Sequence record: MG748547
Length of the DNA: 64,000 nt
Strand: one strand, 5' to 3'
Source of the DNA: Escherichia phage EP75
Position numbers and translations under genes: made by a program. A model generated the notes under the pieces. It was given only the letters and a program-made list of their open reading frames with translations, was not told the origin of the DNA and did no database searches. Of this stretch, positions 441-53,520 are shown piece by piece; within the stretch, counting starts at the first letter, position 1, and each line of letters starts with the position of its first letter.

Positions 441-646
441 ATATGTTTGCCTTCACACCCATATGGAGTTAGCTATGCTGCAATTAATTTTGATTCTTTG
501 CGTCGCTTTTACCATGTACTTTCTGGCGCGAATCAGTTATATCACACTAAATGATCTGAAAAATACACCACGCGAACCTAAATTTATATTTCTAAAGAAA
601 TACACCAAAAAGTTCTGCGAGAATTTTATCTATCATCTTCCATGAT

Positions 647-654
647 TATAAATA
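647..654 (+). promoter_or_regulatory. T4-type late promoter box TATAAATA
   Basis: Exact TATAAATA 22 nt upstream of ATG at 676, followed directly by hairpin ACCCCCAAAATTGGGGGT whose 3' arm carries the GGGGG Shine-Dalgarno. Confidence 0.5.
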
Positions 655-675
655 CCCCCAAAATTGGGGGTATTT

Positions 676-1404
676 ATGAACGCACAAATCTACGATGTCC
701 TTTCCTCTGGTAACGCATTTAGCAACCCGCTTCCGTCCCTCTCCGGTCCCTCACAGGATTTAATCACCAGTGGTAGTACCAATATACCATTGATAACTGC
801 CAACGCGACTCCGGAAATGCAGGTGGCTATGTCAGCAGGTGGATTAACACCAGATAAACTTACAGCAGCCACAAACATGTATAGCTCTGCCAACACGGGG
901 TTAACGACACTGAACACATATGGCGACCAGAGCATAAATGAAGCGTATTCAAGAATTGGGACTTCCGTTTCATATAAATCAGGTTTGAAAAGTATATCAC
1001 GGGAACCAAACAATTGTGACCTGATCAACAAAGCATTCGGTGTTGTTCAGGATCTAGGCCGCCAATGGTTAAACGCTATGGAAGGCGCTCTCCAGACTGT
1101 GACTAACAAGATATCGGAATTGTATGACATGATTATGGAAGGTGCCTCAGAAGGTATGGCAAAACTACAGCAATTGGCTGCTGAAGTAACAGGGTATATC
1201 AATGAGGCAATAACCGCCGTCAATGGAGTTATAAATGATATCACCGATGGGATAGCTGCAGAACTTGCTCATATTGAAAGTATGATCAAAGAATGTCTAA
1301 ACTTCTCTTTTGCGAATGTTCTTGGAGAATGGGCCAAAGATCTCTGTGCTGGAGGCGTTATTGATAAAATAGGGACTCCAGAATTAAAAGAGTCCCTGAA
1401 ATAA
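676..1404 (+). CDS. hypothetical late protein, possibly virion structural
   Basis: ORF 664..1404; ATG at 676 preceded by GGGGG SD and late box; Ser/Thr/Gly-rich N-terminus; no family recognised. Confidence 0.5.
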   Translation: MNAQIYDVLSSGNAFSNPLPSLSGPSQDLITSGSTNIPLITANATPEMQVAMSAGGLTPDKLTAATNMYSSANTGLTTLNTYGDQSINEAYSRIGTSVSYKSGLKSISREPNNCDLINKAFGVVQDLGRQWLNAMEGALQTVTNKISELYDMIMEGASEGMAKLQQLAAEVTGYINEAITAVNGVINDITDGIAAELAHIESMIKECLNFSFANVLGEWAKDLCAGGVIDKIGTPELKESLK

Positions 1405-3080: not shown

Positions 3081-3826
3081 TGGTTTCTCTACAGGCTTTG
3101 CGCAAACTTAATGACTTTGAAAATCGTCATCATACATTTCAGCAATATTCCTTGCCGTTTAAGGAACTGACTTGCGTAACTACTGAAAATGGTCGTCACT
3201 ATGTTTCTCCCACTGGAGTCAAACTGACTTCAGTGACGACCATGTTAGGGCGTACTGGTGACCACACATGGTTAGAAGCCTGGCGGGACAAGTTGGGGCA
3301 TGAAGCTGCTGATATAGAAACACATCGTTGCGCAGACCGTGGGGAAAAACTTCATTTGGCTTGTGAGTTGTATCTCAAAAACAGACCAATGAAAGAAGTT
3401 CTGGAAGCTGCAGGGGAATACGTGTTTATGTTCAAACAGGTTTTCCCCTACCTTAACAAAATGAGCAAGATATATGCACAAGAGATTCCATTATATAGCG
3501 AAGTCCTGGGTCTTGCTGGTCGTGTTGACCTCATCGGGGTTTACGAAGGAATTCCAAGCATAATCGATTTCAAAACATCCAACACCCTAAAAACTCGAAG
3601 CATGATAGAAGATTATAGTATTCAATTGTGTCTATACTCAGTCATGTTTCAACAAATGTTTAATGTCAAGATAGAGCGTTTAATCAATATTATATCCAAC
3701 GAAAATGCCCTTGTTCCCACCATAATCGAATTCGATCGCAAAGACGTTATTTCTAAAATGTTTGACCGTGTCCGTCTGTATCACAAAATGGACAAAGAAC
3801 AGAAAGGAATCTGGGCGGATCGCTAA
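3080..3826 (+). CDS. PD-(D/E)xK family nuclease (RecB/Cas4/YqaJ-like fold)
   Basis: ATG overlaps uvsY stop (TAATG); motifs GRVDLIG, IIDFKTS and QLCLYSV match D / (D/E)xK / QhxxY nuclease signature. Confidence 0.55.
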   Translation: MVSLQALRKLNDFENRHHTFQQYSLPFKELTCVTTENGRHYVSPTGVKLTSVTTMLGRTGDHTWLEAWRDKLGHEAADIETHRCADRGEKLHLACELYLKNRPMKEVLEAAGEYVFMFKQVFPYLNKMSKIYAQEIPLYSEVLGLAGRVDLIGVYEGIPSIIDFKTSNTLKTRSMIEDYSIQLCLYSVMFQQMFNVKIERLINIISNENALVPTIIEFDRKDVISKMFDRVRLYHKMDKEQKGIWADR

Positions 3827-3855
3827 ATACTCCATAATATTGGGGGAAATTAGTG

Positions 3856-5355
3856 ATGTCTGAGATCCAAATAGTCAAAGTGAACGAAGTTAGAATGCGG
3901 ATCCTTGCCGAGGATTATATCCGTGAAGAACTCAACGATTACTTCAAATTTGAAGATCCTAATTTCCAACCGAATCCGTTCAGTAAATGGGACGGCGTAG
4001 TGCGGTTGTTCACAAAGAGTTCTGGGCTTATCGACATCGGCCTGTTATTTGAGGTGTTCAAATTCTGTAAGATGAACGGTTACACCATCAAATTAGATCC
4101 GGCCTTAAAATATATTCAAGATATTCCGGATGAAGAAATTCATGCGTTCATCGATACATTGAATGCGGTGTACCGAGACGAAAACAAACAATATCAAAAA
4201 GCGATTGTCCGCGATTATCAATTTGATTCCGTTACCACAGCAATACGCCAAAGCAGATGTGTCCTCGAAGCTGCCACGAGTGCTGGCAAATCCTTTATTT
4301 TGTACATCATGGCGCGTTACTACAGGCAACGCAGAGATGCCCTCGAAAGTAATCTGAGGACGTTAATCGTTGTACCATCCATTCATTTGGTGACTCAGTT
4401 GTATGACAACTTCGAAGAATATAGCCACGGGACAGAATGGAAACCATTGATGAATGTCCAGACAATATACGAAGGGGCAACGAAAGAGATTTTCAAACCC
4501 ATAGTTATTTCAACTTGGCAAGGTATCCAGAACCAACCCAAAGAGTGGTTCCATCAATTTGGAGATATCGTCATCGACGAAGTACATACATCAAAATCAG
4601 ATAAATTGTCTTACATCTTGAACAACTGTATTAACGCTGATCAACGTTTGGGAGTAACCGGAACCCTGGCGAATACAAAGGTCGCGGGGTTACAAGTCGT
4701 TGCTCACTTTGGCGCATATCATAAAATTATTACAGCGCGCGATTTAATCGATCTAGGATATGCGGCAGACATCAATGTTAATATGATTGAAGTCATACAT
4801 CCTGTGGCAGACTGTATTGAAATGCACGGTGCTGAGTATCAAAAGGAAATAGAATTCCTCATTGCTAACGAACGCCGCAATGAATTGATAGCTCGAATGG
4901 CTCTGTCTTTGAAAGGGAACGTCGCAGTAATGTTCGAACGTATCGATGCACACATGATGTTGGTTTATGAAATGCTATCGGCAGTCAAGAAAAACGTATT
5001 CGTCATCAACGGGGAAGTCAAGACAGAAGTTCGTAAACAGATTCAGGCTGCTATGGAAGAAGGGGAAGATATAACACTGTTGGCATCATATGGTACTATG
5101 CAACAGGGCGTATCTATCAAAAAACTCCATCATCTGATATTGGCCCATCCCAGCAAATCTTATATCCGTGTTATACAGACATTGGGGCGTTTGATGCGCC
5201 AGCATTCCTCTAAGGATGTTGCGCGAATCTGGGACCTGGTAGACAACCTGCGTTACAACGGTTCCTACAACCATGCTCTCAGGCATTCTCATGAGAGATA
5301 TAAATTTTATCTTATGGAGCGCCACCCTGTTAAAATGAAAAAAGTGGCGCTCTAA
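3856..5355 (+). CDS. uvsW: UvsW-like SF2 DNA helicase
   Basis: 500 aa; Walker A AATSAGKS, DEVH box, TWQGIQNQPKEWF segment alignable to T4 UvsW; size matches T4 UvsW. Confidence 0.85.
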   Translation: MSEIQIVKVNEVRMRILAEDYIREELNDYFKFEDPNFQPNPFSKWDGVVRLFTKSSGLIDIGLLFEVFKFCKMNGYTIKLDPALKYIQDIPDEEIHAFIDTLNAVYRDENKQYQKAIVRDYQFDSVTTAIRQSRCVLEAATSAGKSFILYIMARYYRQRRDALESNLRTLIVVPSIHLVTQLYDNFEEYSHGTEWKPLMNVQTIYEGATKEIFKPIVISTWQGIQNQPKEWFHQFGDIVIDEVHTSKSDKLSYILNNCINADQRLGVTGTLANTKVAGLQVVAHFGAYHKIITARDLIDLGYAADINVNMIEVIHPVADCIEMHGAEYQKEIEFLIANERRNELIARMALSLKGNVAVMFERIDAHMMLVYEMLSAVKKNVFVINGEVKTEVRKQIQAAMEEGEDITLLASYGTMQQGVSIKKLHHLILAHPSKSYIRVIQTLGRLMRQHSSKDVARIWDLVDNLRYNGSYNHALRHSHERYKFYLMERHPVKMKKVAL

Positions 5356-26658: not shown

Positions 26659-27186
26659 ATGATTGAAATATACACTGACGGGGCATCATCCCCTCAGAAG
26701 ACAAGAGCTGCTGGTTGGGCATTTGCCATCAGTCCAATCACTGGAGAGCAATGGAAAGTGTTTTATGGGTATTTACCCCCGCCGTCAACGAACAATATAG
26801 CTGAGTTACTCGGGGTTATAAACGCGATGAAGATCCTATGGAAATTCTCTAATTGTGGTGAACGCTGCATTCCCCCAGCCCGCATTATATCCGACAGCCA
26901 ATATGTTATCAATAGTGTTTTGGAGTGGCGTAGAAAATGGGAATATGAAGGGATGCCGCCTAAGAACACAGAACTTCTGCTCGAGTTGTTCGATTATTAT
27001 GACAAAGTTTGTTCAATTTGTGAACTTGAATTAAAATGGGTGAAAGGTCATGCAGGAACGATGGGCAACGAAATTGCGGATCAGTGGAGCGTTAGAGCCA
27101 AAGAAGATAGTTCAATGGTTCTTGAAAATAACCGTTTCTCGGTCAAGAAAGTCGTTGGTTCTTTCAATGAATTCATTGGTATTTGA
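26659..27186 (+). CDS. RNase HI (cellular type)
   Basis: IYTDGAS ... NNIAELLGVINAMK ... ISDSQYVIN ... WVKGHAGTMGNEIADQ match RNase H catalytic motifs. Confidence 0.8.
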   Translation: MIEIYTDGASSPQKTRAAGWAFAISPITGEQWKVFYGYLPPPSTNNIAELLGVINAMKILWKFSNCGERCIPPARIISDSQYVINSVLEWRRKWEYEGMPPKNTELLLELFDYYDKVCSICELELKWVKGHAGTMGNEIADQWSVRAKEDSSMVLENNRFSVKKVVGSFNEFIGI

Positions 27187-27197
27187 GGATTATCACG

Positions 27198-27968
27198 ATG
27201 GGTATGAATTTTATAGACAGGGGTGATAACGTCACCAAATATTTCACAGACGAAGATAATGACCGTGTTGTTGGAATATTGAGAGATTGGATTCCGGCTC
27301 GCAAAAAGGCTTTGGCCGAAGGAACACCCCTACCAAGAATCCCCAATTATGTGGCCATGAATGTTCAGATGATTATTAAGAACATGAGTATGCGCTACAA
27401 CTATCGTGATTATCCATACCGCGAAGACATGGTCAGTGAGGCCGTTGTCAACATCCTTCGTTACCTCCATACATTTGATGTCAGTCATATCGGCAAGAAA
27501 GGAAAAATCAATTTTTTCTCTTGGGTAACGATGTGCGCCGACCGTTCATTCGCCAAGAAACTCACCAGTGAAGAAGAACACAATTATATCAAGTTGCGTT
27601 CATTTGAAGAAGCAGGTGGGTTCGCTGCATTATCGGATGACCCAGACTTCCAACAACAAACCTTCGTTGATAGCACTGGGATAACGATGGACTTCCGTGA
27701 GCGTATCGGAAATTTTGAAACTAAGAAAGAAGCCCAGCGCGAAAAGGAACGCCAAAAGCAAATCGCCATCAAAGAAGAGGAAAAGAATAAGAAAATTCCT
27801 CGCGGTATACTTCAATGTCTTACGAAGAGTGAAAATACCATTACCGCTGACGCCGAAGATAATTCAGATAATGACTTCGGCTCTACTCAATTTAGTCTTG
27901 AAGATATAATGGACAGCCCCACATTGTTAGCCGAATCAGTTGGAGAAAAGAATAATGGCGATTGCTAA
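27198..27968 (+). CDS. 55: late sigma factor (gp55-like)
   Basis: Region RYNYRDYPYREDMVSEAVVNILRYLHTFD aligns with T4 gp55; followed by 47 and 46 as in T4; acidic C-terminal extension; alternative ATG at 27183. Confidence 0.7.
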   Translation: MGMNFIDRGDNVTKYFTDEDNDRVVGILRDWIPARKKALAEGTPLPRIPNYVAMNVQMIIKNMSMRYNYRDYPYREDMVSEAVVNILRYLHTFDVSHIGKKGKINFFSWVTMCADRSFAKKLTSEEEHNYIKLRSFEEAGGFAALSDDPDFQQQTFVDSTGITMDFRERIGNFETKKEAQREKERQKQIAIKEEEKNKKIPRGILQCLTKSENTITADAEDNSDNDFGSTQFSLEDIMDSPTLLAESVGEKNNGDC

Positions 27969-32245: not shown

Positions 32246-32510
32246 AATTCAGATTGCTTGCGATATCGCTGTCGAGTTATGGAATCAGCGAAACAAACAT
32301 TATCAGGTGACGTTGACACCAAAACGTTACCTAGAGCAAGGTGGGTTGATCGTTGTTGACGCCGTCTTGGGTTTCAACAAGTACACAGATATGCAAATCC
32401 TCCAAGGGGATTTCATAGTGGCATCAAAATCAGCTTGGGATGATCCTATGGAATTTGTCTACGGTTGGTTGGAATGCATCGAGGAATCATACCATCTGAT
32501 CTACGAATAA
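32229..32510 (+). CDS. hypothetical small protein
   Basis: 93-aa ORF. Confidence 0.35.
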   Translation: MMSRDEIQIACDIAVELWNQRNKHYQVTLTPKRYLEQGGLIVVDAVLGFNKYTDMQILQGDFIVASKSAWDDPMEFVYGWLECIEESYHLIYE

Positions 32511-32514
32511 GGTG

Positions 32515-32548
32515 AAGGGCACTAAATATCACGTGCCCTTTATCTTTT
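32515..32548 (+). terminator. intrinsic terminator
   Basis: AAGGGCAC...GTGCCCTT hairpin followed by TATCTTTT. Confidence 0.55.
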
Positions 32549-37585: not shown

Positions 37586-37617
37586 AATCCCCCTAAATAC
37601 AGGGGGATTTCTTTTTC
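37586..37617 (+). terminator. intrinsic terminator
   Basis: ATCCCCC-TAAATAC-AGGGGGAT hairpin followed by TTCTTTTTCT. Confidence 0.6.
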
Positions 37618-39834: not shown

Positions 39835-39863
39835 TTTACTCTTCAATAATGACGCACTATTAT
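39835..39863 (+). promoter_or_regulatory. T4-type early (sigma70-like) promoter
   Basis: -35 TTTACT (39835..39840), 17-nt spacer, -10 TATTAT (39858..39863). Confidence 0.55.
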
Positions 39864-39940
39864 AGTTCACATAGGGCGGTACACAACACCCCGCCGAATG
39901 AAAAGTGAAACGAACCAACTACATTATGAGGAATTACATC

Positions 39941-40429
39941 ATGGCTACTACCAAAACTCTGATCACCAACGGCACCATCTCTTTTGAACTGAACACTGAA
40001 GTTGCAAAAGTTGAAATGTTCCGCATCGCTCAGGCAGCTGGCTTCACTGGTGGCAAAACTTCCTTCATGAACCTGCTGAACGGCAAAGTCAAAGCGACCA
40101 ACGGCTTCACCCTGGTTGAGCAGGTTGTGGTTGACAAAGCAGTCGTCGCAAAAACCGCTGACAAAGTTGGCATGCTGAAAGGCCTGGGGCACGACATCCA
40201 CGTTGTTGAAGCTACGACCGAAACTTACGGCACCATCACTGTCGGAAAGGGGCGCATCCAGCTGAACCCGCTGAATAACGGAACCTTCTCTGTGATGGTA
40301 TTCCCGAAAAAAGGTTACGACAACAGCGATATCGTGAAAGCCGCTGGCGGTGAAGCAAAATCCCAATATGTCAAAATGGGTAAACTGAGCGCCGACGCCG
40401 TTGAAACTCTGGTAAGCAAACTGGCATAA
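39941..40429 (+). CDS. hypothetical protein, probably abundant early protein
   Basis: ATG at 39941 with GAGGA SD; strongly biased codon usage; flanked by early promoter and strong terminator. Confidence 0.5.
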   Translation: MATTKTLITNGTISFELNTEVAKVEMFRIAQAAGFTGGKTSFMNLLNGKVKATNGFTLVEQVVVDKAVVAKTADKVGMLKGLGHDIHVVEATTETYGTITVGKGRIQLNPLNNGTFSVMVFPKKGYDNSDIVKAAGGEAKSQYVKMGKLSADAVETLVSKLA

Positions 40430-40436
40430 GTCACAA

Positions 40437-40460
40437 GGGGAGGCAACTCCCCTCCTTATT
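40437..40460 (+). terminator. intrinsic terminator
   Basis: GGGGAGG-CAACT-CCCCTCC hairpin followed by TTATTC. Confidence 0.5.
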
Positions 40461-40483
40461 CAGAATTTTGGTAGGAGATTATC

Positions 40484-40672
40484 ATGGGACGTCCGATTAT
40501 CCACGTTTCAGAAGGCGCGATTTGGGTTATGACCCGCATCCCTAATGTTCATTTTCCTCAGTTCCAAGAGGAAATCGAGCAAGCAATGCTAACGATCCTG
40601 GAAAAATACGGGTACGACACTGAAGTCCGTGAATCCTTCAACGAAATTATGCCTGTGGTGGTTGCGCGATGA
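40484..40672 (+). CDS. hypothetical small protein
   Basis: 62-aa ORF with AGGAG SD. Confidence 0.35.
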   Translation: MGRPIIHVSEGAIWVMTRIPNVHFPQFQEEIEQAMLTILEKYGYDTEVRESFNEIMPVVVAR

Positions 40673-40974
40673 CCCTGACCCTCGAACAAATCGGCGAAGC
40701 AACCTGTCACCTCCTGAAGGAAAAGACAGGCAAGCAGTGGAAGCATCAGTTGTACAAAGATCACCCTGATGGCGTAGGGGCGATCATGATTGATAGCGAA
40801 GAGTCAACAGCCGTCCTCTTCTATTGGCAAGACACTGGCCGCTGGTCGGCTCAGACTTATGGTGGGAATAAGCAATCTAACTCCGTGCCTTCACCAGTGG
40901 AGGCATATGAAAGTCTGAAGAGAGGCATTCAAATGCAGATCGCTAATCTAAACACTCTCTTGTCAACTATCTAA
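40669..40974 (+). CDS. hypothetical small protein
   Basis: 101-aa ORF, ATGA overlap. Confidence 0.35.
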   Translation: MTLTLEQIGEATCHLLKEKTGKQWKHQLYKDHPDGVGAIMIDSEESTAVLFYWQDTGRWSAQTYGGNKQSNSVPSPVEAYESLKRGIQMQIANLNTLLSTI

Positions 40975-41006
40975 CATAGCAGTTCCTCAAGTCAGTTCAC
41001 TTTCAC

Positions 41007-41036
41007 TTTAAATACCTCTGCAATCACTGCGGAGGT
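41007..41036 (+). promoter_or_regulatory. late-like box TTTAAATA abutting an SD-sequestering hairpin upstream of the endolysin gene
   Basis: TTTAAATA (41007..41014) immediately followed by hairpin ACCTCTGC-AATCACT-GCGGAGGT whose 3' arm contains the GGAGG SD; ATG at 41045. Confidence 0.4.
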
Positions 41037-41044
41037 ATTTTCTT

Positions 41045-41839
41045 ATGGCCATTCTAAAACTTGGCAACCGAGGTTCTGAAGTCAAATCACTTCAGCAAAG
41101 CCTCAATAAAATCGGGTTCTCTCTTATAGCTGATGGCATATTTGGTAAGGCGACCGAGAATGCTGTCAAATCCGTTCAGGCAGGTGCCGGACTGGTGATT
41201 GATGGTATTGCAGGTCCAAAAACCTTCTATGCTATCCGTAATGCCGGAGACGCTCATCAGGAACATCTTACCGAAGCCGACTTAGTTGACGCAGCGCGTG
41301 AACTTGGTGTCGAACTGGCCAGCATGAAAGCTGTTAACCAGGTCGAATCTCGGGGTACTGGTTTCACCAAAACAGGTAAGATCAAAACTCTGTTCGAGCG
41401 CCACATCATGTATAAGAAAGTGGCGGCTAAATTCGGACAAGCAAGAGCCAATGCTCTGTACCAACTTTACCCAACATTGGTTAACCCCAATTCTGGTGGC
41501 TATATCGGCGGAGACGCGGAGTTGGAACGCCTTCAGGGTGCAATCGCCCTTGATGAGGACTGCGCGTACGAGAGTGCGTCCTACGGCTTATTCCAGATCA
41601 TGGGGTTCAATTGCCAGATATGTGGTTATCCGAACGCCAAAGAAATGTTCACAGATTTTCTGACTGGTGAACGTGCACATCTTCTGGCATTTGTGAAATT
41701 CATCAAAGCTGACGCCAATATGTGGAAAGCATTGAAGAACAAAAATTGGGCTGAGTTCGCCCGTCGGTACAATGGTCCAGCATATGCCAAGAACCAGTAT
41801 GACACCAAACTAGCGGCGGCATACAAGAGTTTCTGTTAA
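41045..41839 (+). CDS. endolysin: peptidoglycan-binding domain plus N-acetylmuramidase-like catalytic domain
   Basis: N-terminal PG_binding-like repeat (LKLGNRGSEVKSLQQSLNKIGF ... IDGIAGPKTF); C-terminal domain with FQIMGFN and YNGPAYAKNQYD resembling phage muramidases. Confidence 0.75.
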   Translation: MAILKLGNRGSEVKSLQQSLNKIGFSLIADGIFGKATENAVKSVQAGAGLVIDGIAGPKTFYAIRNAGDAHQEHLTEADLVDAARELGVELASMKAVNQVESRGTGFTKTGKIKTLFERHIMYKKVAAKFGQARANALYQLYPTLVNPNSGGYIGGDAELERLQGAIALDEDCAYESASYGLFQIMGFNCQICGYPNAKEMFTDFLTGERAHLLAFVKFIKADANMWKALKNKNWAEFARRYNGPAYAKNQYDTKLAAAYKSFC

Positions 41840-41842
41840 CAA

Positions 41843-41868
41843 AAGGCCGGAAACGGCCTTTTTCTTTA
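41843..41868 (+). terminator. intrinsic terminator
   Basis: AAGGCCG-GAAA-CGGCCTT hairpin followed by TTTCTTT. Confidence 0.65.
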
Positions 41869-42784: not shown

Positions 42785-42868
42785 ATACCACACGAACTTC
42801 CCCGTCGCCTTCAATCCATGGAGGCGACGTATAATAACAGCCTGCATTAACACAAACCGAGGATCGCT

Positions 42869-52115: not shown

Positions 52116-52127
52116 TCCGGTCTAAAT

Positions 52128-52164
52128 ACCCATAACACAATGAAACTTCGTTATGGGTATTTTT
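52128..52164 (+). terminator. intrinsic terminator
   Basis: ACCCATAAC...GTTATGGGT hairpin followed by ATTTTT, ending immediately before the ATG at 52165. Confidence 0.5.
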
Positions 52165-52764
52165 ATGAAATTTTGCGGAATCGACTATTCTTACGGCTGT
52201 CCAGCCATGTGCTTCTGGGACGACAAAGATCCTCTGGATTTTGATCATCTTCATTTCTATGCACATCATACCGTTGAGAAGCACTGTCGTCAAGTGCGAC
52301 ACAATATTCTTATTTTACGTCAACCCAAATATGAATCCCCCGAAGAACGGTTTTATAACATTTCCAAATGGGCTGAAGCCGTACTTCTTACAGAGAAGCC
52401 GGATTTCATCACCCTAGAAGGCTATGCTATGGGGAATTCAAAAAACTCCAACAACATATGCCAAACCGCCGAGAACACATCTCTATTGAAACAAGCGATG
52501 CGCCGTAACAATATGGAATTTCAGATTGTTACCCCGTCTTTTGTTAAGAAACATTTTTGTGGTAAAGGAAATGCCGACAAATTGGTCATGATAGATCACT
52601 TTGAGAAGCTGTTCAACGTTAAGATGCGTGGTATAATGGACATGTTGGACGTGAAGGATCCAAAGCCTATCGATGATCTTGTAGACTCATTCGCAAACAT
52701 GGTGTCTGGACCTTACTTCATAGAAAATTATCCCGATTTCAATAGAGGTGTAAGAAATGATTAA
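52165..52764 (+). CDS. hypothetical protein, possible RuvC-like/RNase H-fold nuclease
   Basis: 200 aa; FCGIDYSYG ... ITLEGYAMG pattern weakly resembles the RuvC/A22 resolvase fold; low confidence. Confidence 0.35.
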   Translation: MKFCGIDYSYGCPAMCFWDDKDPLDFDHLHFYAHHTVEKHCRQVRHNILILRQPKYESPEERFYNISKWAEAVLLTEKPDFITLEGYAMGNSKNSNNICQTAENTSLLKQAMRRNNMEFQIVTPSFVKKHFCGKGNADKLVMIDHFEKLFNVKMRGIMDMLDVKDPKPIDDLVDSFANMVSGPYFIENYPDFNRGVRND

Positions 52765-53053: not shown

Positions 53054-53285
53054 TTATGCCTGTACAGGTTGTGGAAATTCGTTTAGTGCTCGAAAATCTT
53101 GTGCTGAACGTCATACACCTGAATTAGAGCCATGTTCTGAATGTGGCGGTGAAATAAAAATGATTATTGGAGCACCAAAGATCGTATCTGGTGTTCGTGG
53201 TCCTCAGTCCGCGCCTGATGGCTTCAAAGACGTTTTGCGTCATATTAAGAAGCAATCAGGGAAGGGGAATACAATCGATGTCTGA
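53040..53285 (+). CDS. FmdB-like zinc-ribbon protein
   Basis: MPFYDYACTGCG ... CSECGG two CxxC pairs typical of the FmdB zinc-ribbon family. Confidence 0.4.
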   Translation: MPFYDYACTGCGNSFSARKSCAERHTPELEPCSECGGEIKMIIGAPKIVSGVRGPQSAPDGFKDVLRHIKKQSGKGNTIDV

Positions 53286-53520
53286 TCAACAAATAGCACA
53301 AGTGCTCACACCAGATTCTTTTTCCGAATTGGTGTTGATGAGAGCAAGCCAACGCAAGGAATCAATCCTTGAAACGATGGCCAGTGTTTGTGAAGAGTAT
53401 GACATCGAAGAAGCAAAGGTCAAAAAATTGATCACGCCTCCTCTTCTGTCAAGGCTAACAGCTGAATGTTCTGATGCTCGGTTGTTGAAGGGTGAATTGA
53501 AATCTAAAAAACTCATTTAA
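53278..53520 (+). CDS. hypothetical small protein
   Basis: 80 aa; ATG at 53278 overlapping previous stop. Confidence 0.35.
   Translation: MSDQQIAQVLTPDSFSELVLMRASQRKESILETMASVCEEYDIEEAKVKKLITPPLLSRLTAECSDARLLKGELKSKKLI

Follow-up and report, generated by a model that had tools for sequence, protein, structure and literature searches.

A putative late-promoter and hairpin cassette of the T4 gene e/gene 49 type over the endolysin ribosome-binding site of a Vi01-like Kuttervirus

The endolysin gene of the phage analyzed here, which is a Vi01-like Kuttervirus (Ackermannviridae), is preceded by a segment (41007–41044) that, as judged from its sequence, is probably a composite regulatory cassette operating by the mechanism of T4 gene e and gene 49. 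In the proposed mechanism, a gp55-dependent late promoter box, TTTAAATA, would also form the base of the 5′ arm of a hairpin, and the CCTCT that separates the box from the predicted start, at −5 to −1, would pair as an anti-Shine–Dalgarno sequence (anti-SD) with the GGAGG of the endolysin gene. Transcripts entering from the upstream same-strand genes would hold both arms of the hairpin; part of them would probably terminate at the hairpin and its U-tract, and in those reading through, the ribosome-binding site would be locked. Late transcripts starting at ∼41020 would be devoid of the anti-SD and hence translatable, and endolysin synthesis would thus be tied to late transcription. The whole analysis was carried out in silico on a window of 64,000 nucleotides (Escherichia phage EP75, record MG748547), with Salmonella phage SeF3a (record ON809763.1; 97.9% identical) as the annotated reference for genome-wide counts. 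The endolysin region was found to be 97–98% identical to that of the Salmonella phages SeF3a, Vi01, and Marshall and of many other Kuttervirus members.

A lock of the T4 gene e/gene 49 type requires transcription by gp55, gp33, and the sliding clamp, and the gene content of the phage provides for it. Genes for a gp55-type late sigma factor and a gp33-type co-activator were identified in the window (Table 1), and a clamp (gp45) homolog is annotated in SeF3a. Homologs of gp55, gp33, and the clamp have been published for genomes of the Vi01-like family (PMC3121705, PMC3184105). In the SeF3a annotation, a long series of plus-strand genes serves replication and nucleotide metabolism (primase, PhoH, and NrdA/B among them), with a few structural genes in between. 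Earlier transcripts may read into the endolysin gene, as indirect signs of which there are same-strand genes at 39905–40974 and a sigma-70-like site at 39835–39863. A strong hairpin, AAGGGGAGG-CAACT-CCCCTCCTT, is located at 40436–40458 (+) between a gene end at 40429 and the small ORFs at 40484–40974; it is labeled as a terminator in one relative and may be leaky, and no promoter-like motif was seen in the stretch from this hairpin to 40484. The sequence-only reading had spoken of an unrelated muramidase-type endolysin, and the domains detected (PG_binding_1 and Muramidase, PF11860) agree with this, indicating that the enzyme is unrelated to the T4-type lysozyme. Owing to the hairpins on both of its sides, the endolysin gene looks like a one-gene late unit in an earlier-expressed region.

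Table 1. Features of the endolysin leader, the related cassettes, and the late-transcription genes in the window.
Feature	Position	Strand	Remarks
DUF7217 cassette	646–679	+	perfect TATAAATA at 647–654; 15-bp near-palindromic hairpin
Weaker cassette, gene starting near 3855	3816–3862	+	CTAAATA with CTCCA/TGGGG inside a larger stem
gp55-type late sigma factor	27183–27968	+	phrog_234, E 2.8e-53
Tandem TTCACT-TTCACT	40996–41007	+	directly 5′ of the endolysin box, overlapping it
Late-promoter-type box TTTAAATA	41007–41014	+	counterpart of T4 TATAAATA and of the family motif (N)CTAAATA
Hairpin, 13 bp	41010–41040	+	dG −18 to −19 kcal/mol, z = −4.95
Hairpin 5′ arm AAATACCTCTGCA	41010–41022	+	
Anti-SD CCTCT	41015–41019	+	core of 5′ arm; pairs with GGAGG in the fold; predicted −5 to −1
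Predicted late start	41020–41021	+	6–7 nt past the box; inferred from T4 box position −13 to −6
Hairpin loop ATCAC	41023–41027	+	
Hairpin 3′ arm TGCGGAGGTATTT	41028–41040	+	
Shine–Dalgarno (SD) GGAGG of endolysin	41031–41035	+	inside 3′ arm; endolysin ATG 41045
U-rich spacer TATTTTCTT	41036–41044	+	SD–ATG spacing and possible terminator U-tract
Endolysin ORF, 264 aa	41045–41839	+	PG_binding_1 and N-acetylmuramidase PF11860; PHROG endolysin family matches
Intrinsic-terminator-like hairpin and T-run	41841–41862	+	directly after endolysin stop; found by terminator scan
Weaker cassette, gp5 baseplate hub/lysozyme gene	49796–49753	−	ATAAATA with ACCCAT/ATGGGT
RuvC-like resolvase cassette	52118–52167	+	CTAAATA box (TAAATA 52123–52128); 13-bp hairpin 52124–52162 over SD; ATG 52165
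gp33-type late transcription co-activator	53167–53520	+	phrog_254, E 1.4e-22

The stretch from 41007 to 41047 reads TTTAAATACCTCTGCAATCACTGCGGAGGTATTTTCTTATG. It had been described, from the sequence alone, as a late-like box abutting a hairpin whose 3′ arm carries the GGAGG of the endolysin gene. The box, the hairpin, and the location of the SD within the 3′ arm were all recovered; the box and the hairpin do not abut, however, as the box ends in five bases (AAATA) that form the base of the 5′ arm. None of 200 dinucleotide shuffles folded as well as the hairpin. A covariance-model search against Rfam 15 assigned it to no family, the only two matches being chance ones below the gathering scores (21.3 bits where 42 was required, and 15.1 where 40 was). 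The TTCACT tandem overlapping the box is invariant across four genera, has no second copy in the window, and is absent from Serratia phage Kevin (Miltonvirus). T4 late promoters are devoid of a conserved upstream element. A scan for a sigma-70 promoter within the endolysin cassette returned none; the arrangement TTCACT-17-TGCAAT appeared weak by eye, and a start from it would fall inside the SD.

The abundance of the box in the window is not informative, the octamer TTTAAATA occurring four times against 2.96 expected (chance level) and the exact T4 consensus TATAAATA four times against 1.9, which is uninformative alone. The T4 consensus was also discarded as a search motif, its exact form being rare and a search with ≤1 mismatch missing most structural genes. 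Hence, the family motif was read from the upstream regions of the structural genes themselves. In SeF3a, (A/C)CTAAATA(C/T) was found to recur before the sheath, scaffold, tail, tail-spike, head-completion, and tube-cap genes, and NTAAATA was also present 5′ of baseplate genes. The core TAAATA has 63 copies in SeF3a, 22 of which lie in the intergenic DNA that makes up 6.2% of the genome (binomial 1e-11), and nearly all of these intergenic copies are placed 9–40 nt 5′ of a same-strand gene. The intergenic enrichment, the positions before structural genes, and the presence of gp55 and gp33 genes all uphold the designation of the box as late-like, with promoter activity as a prediction. A late promoter of ViI-like phages was stated to be not identified by Kutter et al. 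(2011); late promoters of Ackermannviridae may provisionally be defined as NTAAATA with a start ∼6 nt downstream.

The endolysin box carries T at position −12, where the consensus has C or A, C being the family form. This position is C in most boxes and A, T, or G in others, and orthologous boxes differ exactly there: the DUF7217 gene box is TATAAATA in the window and TTAAATA in SeF3a, and the resolvase box is CTAAATA, GTAAATA, or ATAAATA depending on the genus. Hence, TTTAAATA falls within the natural range of boxes. It is invariant in the Kuttervirus, Agtrevirus, Limestonevirus, and Taipeivirus relatives, and in Serratia phage Kevin, the endolysin box at the same place is the T4-type variant AATAAATA. 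The commonest variant among T4 late promoters is A at −13, and the late consensus of phage Aeh1 has a/gC at −13/−12 (T4 late-transcription review, PMC2988020).

Several other genes were found to be preceded by the same arrangement. A strict cassette was defined as a box, a stem of ≥5 bp starting 0–1 nt later, an SD-like 3′ arm, and a start codon 4–17 nt further on; the scan found 10 such cassettes in SeF3a against 0.21 ± 0.45 (maximum 2) in 100 dinucleotide shuffles. The DUF7217 hairpin masks both the SD GGGGG and the ATG (676), and opening the SD costs 20.2 kcal/mol when the leader is long but 2.9 kcal/mol when it is short. Tail-spike genes within late clusters have the cassette as well, and for them timing alone makes a weak rationale; the early-versus-late distinction may, therefore, be one use of a more general device. 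In SeF3a, the annotated tail-fiber start at 145025 lies inside the 3′ arm tttATGgggtat of a cassette at ∼144998–145045, and the ATG ∼16 nt downstream, past the SD, is the more likely start.

Two further overlaps of promoters with hairpins were observed. Strong hairpins of terminator type, each with a T-run after it, carry the late-type box CTAAATA in their loops on the plus strand at 32509–32546 and 37587–37609 (AAGGGCAC-TAAATATCAC-GTGCCCTT and AATCCCCC-TAAATACA-GGGGGATT), which is a different terminator/late-promoter overlap in which the SD is not involved. At 42810–42835 (+), 5′ of nrdA (ATG 42869), the exact early-promoter motif of the family, TTCAAT-N14-TATAAT, is present with an 11-bp hairpin (∼42803–42829) carrying the −35 element in its loop. 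Allowing ≤2 mismatches, the window has 24 copies of this motif where 10.5 would be expected, and similar promoter-in-hairpin arrangements precede the ligase gene and other genes in SeF3a.

The hairpin at the endolysin gene could instead be a plain terminator or insulator of the upstream operon (40484–40974), with TTTAAATA as its A-tract, the SD overlap as a by-product of packing, and the endolysin mRNA starting elsewhere. Consistent with this, the GC-rich stem is followed by TATTTTCT, AAATA pairs with TATTT, the GenBank records of phages Marshall and AKM_ssTn list the hairpin as a terminator, and the other late-type boxes mentioned above lie in terminator loops. The core stem ACCTCTGCA/TGCGGAGGT with ATTTTCTT after it is terminator-like, but the hairpin was not listed by the terminator scan, the likely reason being that some of the T-run is taken up in the maximal stem. 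Many sister cassettes (GGGGTATCTATG, GAGGGTAAAGTCATG, and GAGGATATAAATCATG among them), moreover, retain the box, the anti-SD, and the SD layout without a U-tract, suggesting that SD masking rather than termination is the common feature. The box is sequence specific and is the same as that before structural genes that have no hairpin, and the distance from the hairpin to the ATG is too short to hold a second promoter. A terminator alone is, thus, an unlikely account of the segment. Termination and a lock are compatible with each other, and at the endolysin locus, termination and SD masking probably act together.

The geometry and the energetics of the leader are in agreement with masking of the SD in a manner that depends on the origin of the transcript. 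The T4 late box comprises 8 bp and spans −13 to −6 (PMC2988020); with this geometry, the predicted +1 of the endolysin transcript is at ∼41020, just past CCTCT, the box ending at 41014. The folding energies of both leaders, proposed earlier as a check, were computed, and the SD opening cost was 14.9 kcal/mol in the long leader against 1.4–2.1 kcal/mol in a leader beginning at the predicted late start. Treated identically, the control, T4 gene e, gave 12.9–14.8 kcal/mol for the long leader and 0.4–2.9 kcal/mol for the late start, and the endolysin gene of Serratia phage Kevin gave 14.4 and 3.2–3.4 kcal/mol, respectively. The sequence-only reading had proposed that upstream-derived transcripts would occlude the SD, that a late start inside the 5′ arm would free it, and that the control is of the T4 gene e type; the opening costs, the stability of the hairpin, and the layout and SD opening contrast shared with T4 gene e support all three in silico. 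When the SD opening cost was ranked in the −70 to +20 leaders of the 216 annotated SeF3a genes, the endolysin SD was the most sequestered (17.5 kcal/mol), and the six most sequestered SDs all had TAAATA 23–37 nt before the ATG (hypergeometric 1e-6).

Comparison among relatives showed that the endolysin leader (40997–41044) is near-invariant in Kuttervirus, Agtrevirus, Limestonevirus, and Taipeivirus. Its conservation is 0.90, against 0.75 for codon third positions, and sets in abruptly near 40997, the sequence 5′ of which is unrelated. The bases of the hairpin loop vary. The arm variants (CCTCT, CCTTC, and CCTTA; GCGG or GTGG) retain pairing through G–U, with one mismatch in one lineage (L016), and 93% of alignment cells in the stem are paired against 46–52% in slid registers. 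Double-sided covariation was not detected in the stem among the aligned orthologs, and the formal scores did not exceed those of shuffles, as the sequences are too conserved. The Miltonvirus hairpin is misaligned by MAFFT in this alignment; in Serratia phage Kevin, a different stem, CCCTCTG/CAGAGGG, is present in the same architecture behind AATAAATA. The resolvase cassette showed three compensatory changes across genera (A–T to T–A, an inserted G:C pair, and A–T to G–C), and a two-pair extension of its stem co-varied with the −12 base of the box. These changes were read from per-sequence folds since MAFFT misplaces the inserted G:C pair. In view of the absence of formal covariation, the support for the endolysin stem comes from its conservation, the G–U-preserving changes, the Miltonvirus stem, and the sister cassette.

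It could also be argued that the box is not a promoter here and that the endolysin is translated from read-through mRNA, with the hairpin acting as a constitutive damper that does not respond to the origin of the transcript; the output would be kept low, or the hairpin would be opened by a helicase, RNase processing, or temperature. The departure of the box from the consensus at −12, its chance-level count, and the lack of covariation in the endolysin stem are in line with this, as is the literature search, in which no start-site data for Ackermannviridae were found. However, an SD lock of 15 kcal/mol, the strongest in the genome, would nearly abolish translation, and the equivalent structure in the T4 gene e leader lowers lysozyme synthesis ∼100-fold (PMC3014915). 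That all six of the strongest locks lie behind a box, and that the Miltonvirus ortholog has a T4-type variant at the same place, also speaks against a mere damper, which is considered quite unlikely. A late start at or 5′ of the box, with the hairpin as a 5′-terminal stabilizer of the late mRNA against 5′-end-dependent decay, is highly improbable: 5′ stem-loops do stabilize bacterial and phage mRNAs and the hairpin is highly conserved, but the SD would be left locked in the sole abundant mRNA of the endolysin and tail-spike genes, an upstream promoter element, none of which was seen at the sister cassettes, would be required, and the −13 to −6 geometry of gp55-type boxes would be contradicted.

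The T4 gene e/gene 49-type cassette preferred here bears on a motif published for Ackermannviridae/Viunalikevirus, CTAAATAcCcc (Adriaenssens et al., 2012, as quoted in PMC7283392), which the quoting text gives as a regulatory motif only. The endolysin box together with the anti-SD, TTTAAATACCTC, matches this motif at 9 of 11 positions, with T for C at positions 1 and 10, and exact matches were found at sister cassettes. As a point against the cassette reading, the bases 3′ of the box are C-rich here, whereas those of T4 late promoters are A/T-rich (PMC2988020). The reading of cCcc as an anti-SD, and of the start as lying after cCcc, comes from the present analysis. There is an about even chance that cCcc is an anti-SD built into positions −5 to −1 of the late promoter, so that, in each genome, ∼10–12 genes would have their own late transcript as the only translatable RNA, with read-through RNA giving no product. 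The set may include the genes for the endolysin, the Holliday-junction resolvase, the tail spikes, and an ADP-ribosyltransferase as well as the DUF7217 gene.

If true, the mechanism would explain how a potent muramidase remains silent in Vi01-like phages despite the location of its gene in a region of early/middle transcription; these phages are in widespread use in the biocontrol of Salmonella and E. coli O157. It would also show what the so far unexplained C-rich half of the Ackermannviridae signature motif is for and point to a genome-wide strategy in which translation depends on the position of the transcript start. As for annotation, such hairpins are now labeled as terminators only, and at least one start codon has apparently been called inside a hairpin (145025 in SeF3a). 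In the searchable literature, no earlier description of such a lock outside T4-type phages was found, nor any paper on Ackermannviridae transcript 5′ or 3′ ends, start sites, or transcriptomes. The mechanism as such is known from T4; what is new is the phage family, the unrelated enzyme, the box variant, the likely added terminator, and the wider use in the genome.

Translational control of T4 gene e by a leader hairpin with internal late promoters was reportedly described by McPheeters et al. in 1986. Late promoters inside the hairpin free the ribosome-binding site of T4 genes e, soc, and 49 and of the intron homing endonucleases I-TevI/II (PMC3014915). In a comparison covering 52.5 kb of the T4 genome, the gene e leader was located as TATAAATACCTTCTATAAATACTTAGGAGGTATTATG, with the elements TATAAATACCTTC...GGAGGTATTATG (also as TATAAATACCTTC..TAGGAGGTATTATG). 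The endolysin cassette resembles it in having a late box followed directly by a C/T-rich anti-SD, a 3′ arm GGAGGTAT with a short spacer and the ATG, a location among earlier genes on the same strand, and a nearly equal computed contrast in SD opening cost. It differs in that the endolysin is a PG_binding_1 and PF11860 muramidase and the T4 enzyme a T4-type lysozyme, in the single box TTTAAATA against two TATAAATA in T4, and in a loop of 5 nt without a second promoter. The U-tract is also stronger at the endolysin, where termination likely adds to the lock, and the start site is, unlike that of T4 gene e, a prediction from sequence.

A similar correspondence was observed for the T4 gene 49 leader (AATAAATACCCTTA...TAAGGGTTTATTATG), the layout of which is the same as that of the RuvC-like resolvase leader (CTAAATACCCATAAC...GTTATGGGTATTTTTATG). 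Both enzymes resolve Holliday junctions; the one here is RuvC-like, whereas that of T4 is endonuclease VII, of an unrelated fold. The same logic may have been retained, or have evolved anew, on enzymes that replace T4 lysozyme and T4 endonuclease VII without being their orthologs; if so, the logic of T4 genes e and 49 would belong to the gp55-type late system and not to particular genes, non-homologous enzymes in the same roles being controlled alike. T4-type promoter-stem-loop cassettes reportedly carry sigma-70-type early promoters (Arbiol et al. in 2010 are said to have described them). The endolysin cassette has in common with these a stem-loop and U-run overlapping a promoter element, and it is named a terminator in the GenBank records of relatives. 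In contrast to the e/49/soc set of T4, the device is also placed here before tail, tail-spike, and other genes, amounting to about 10–12 per genome.
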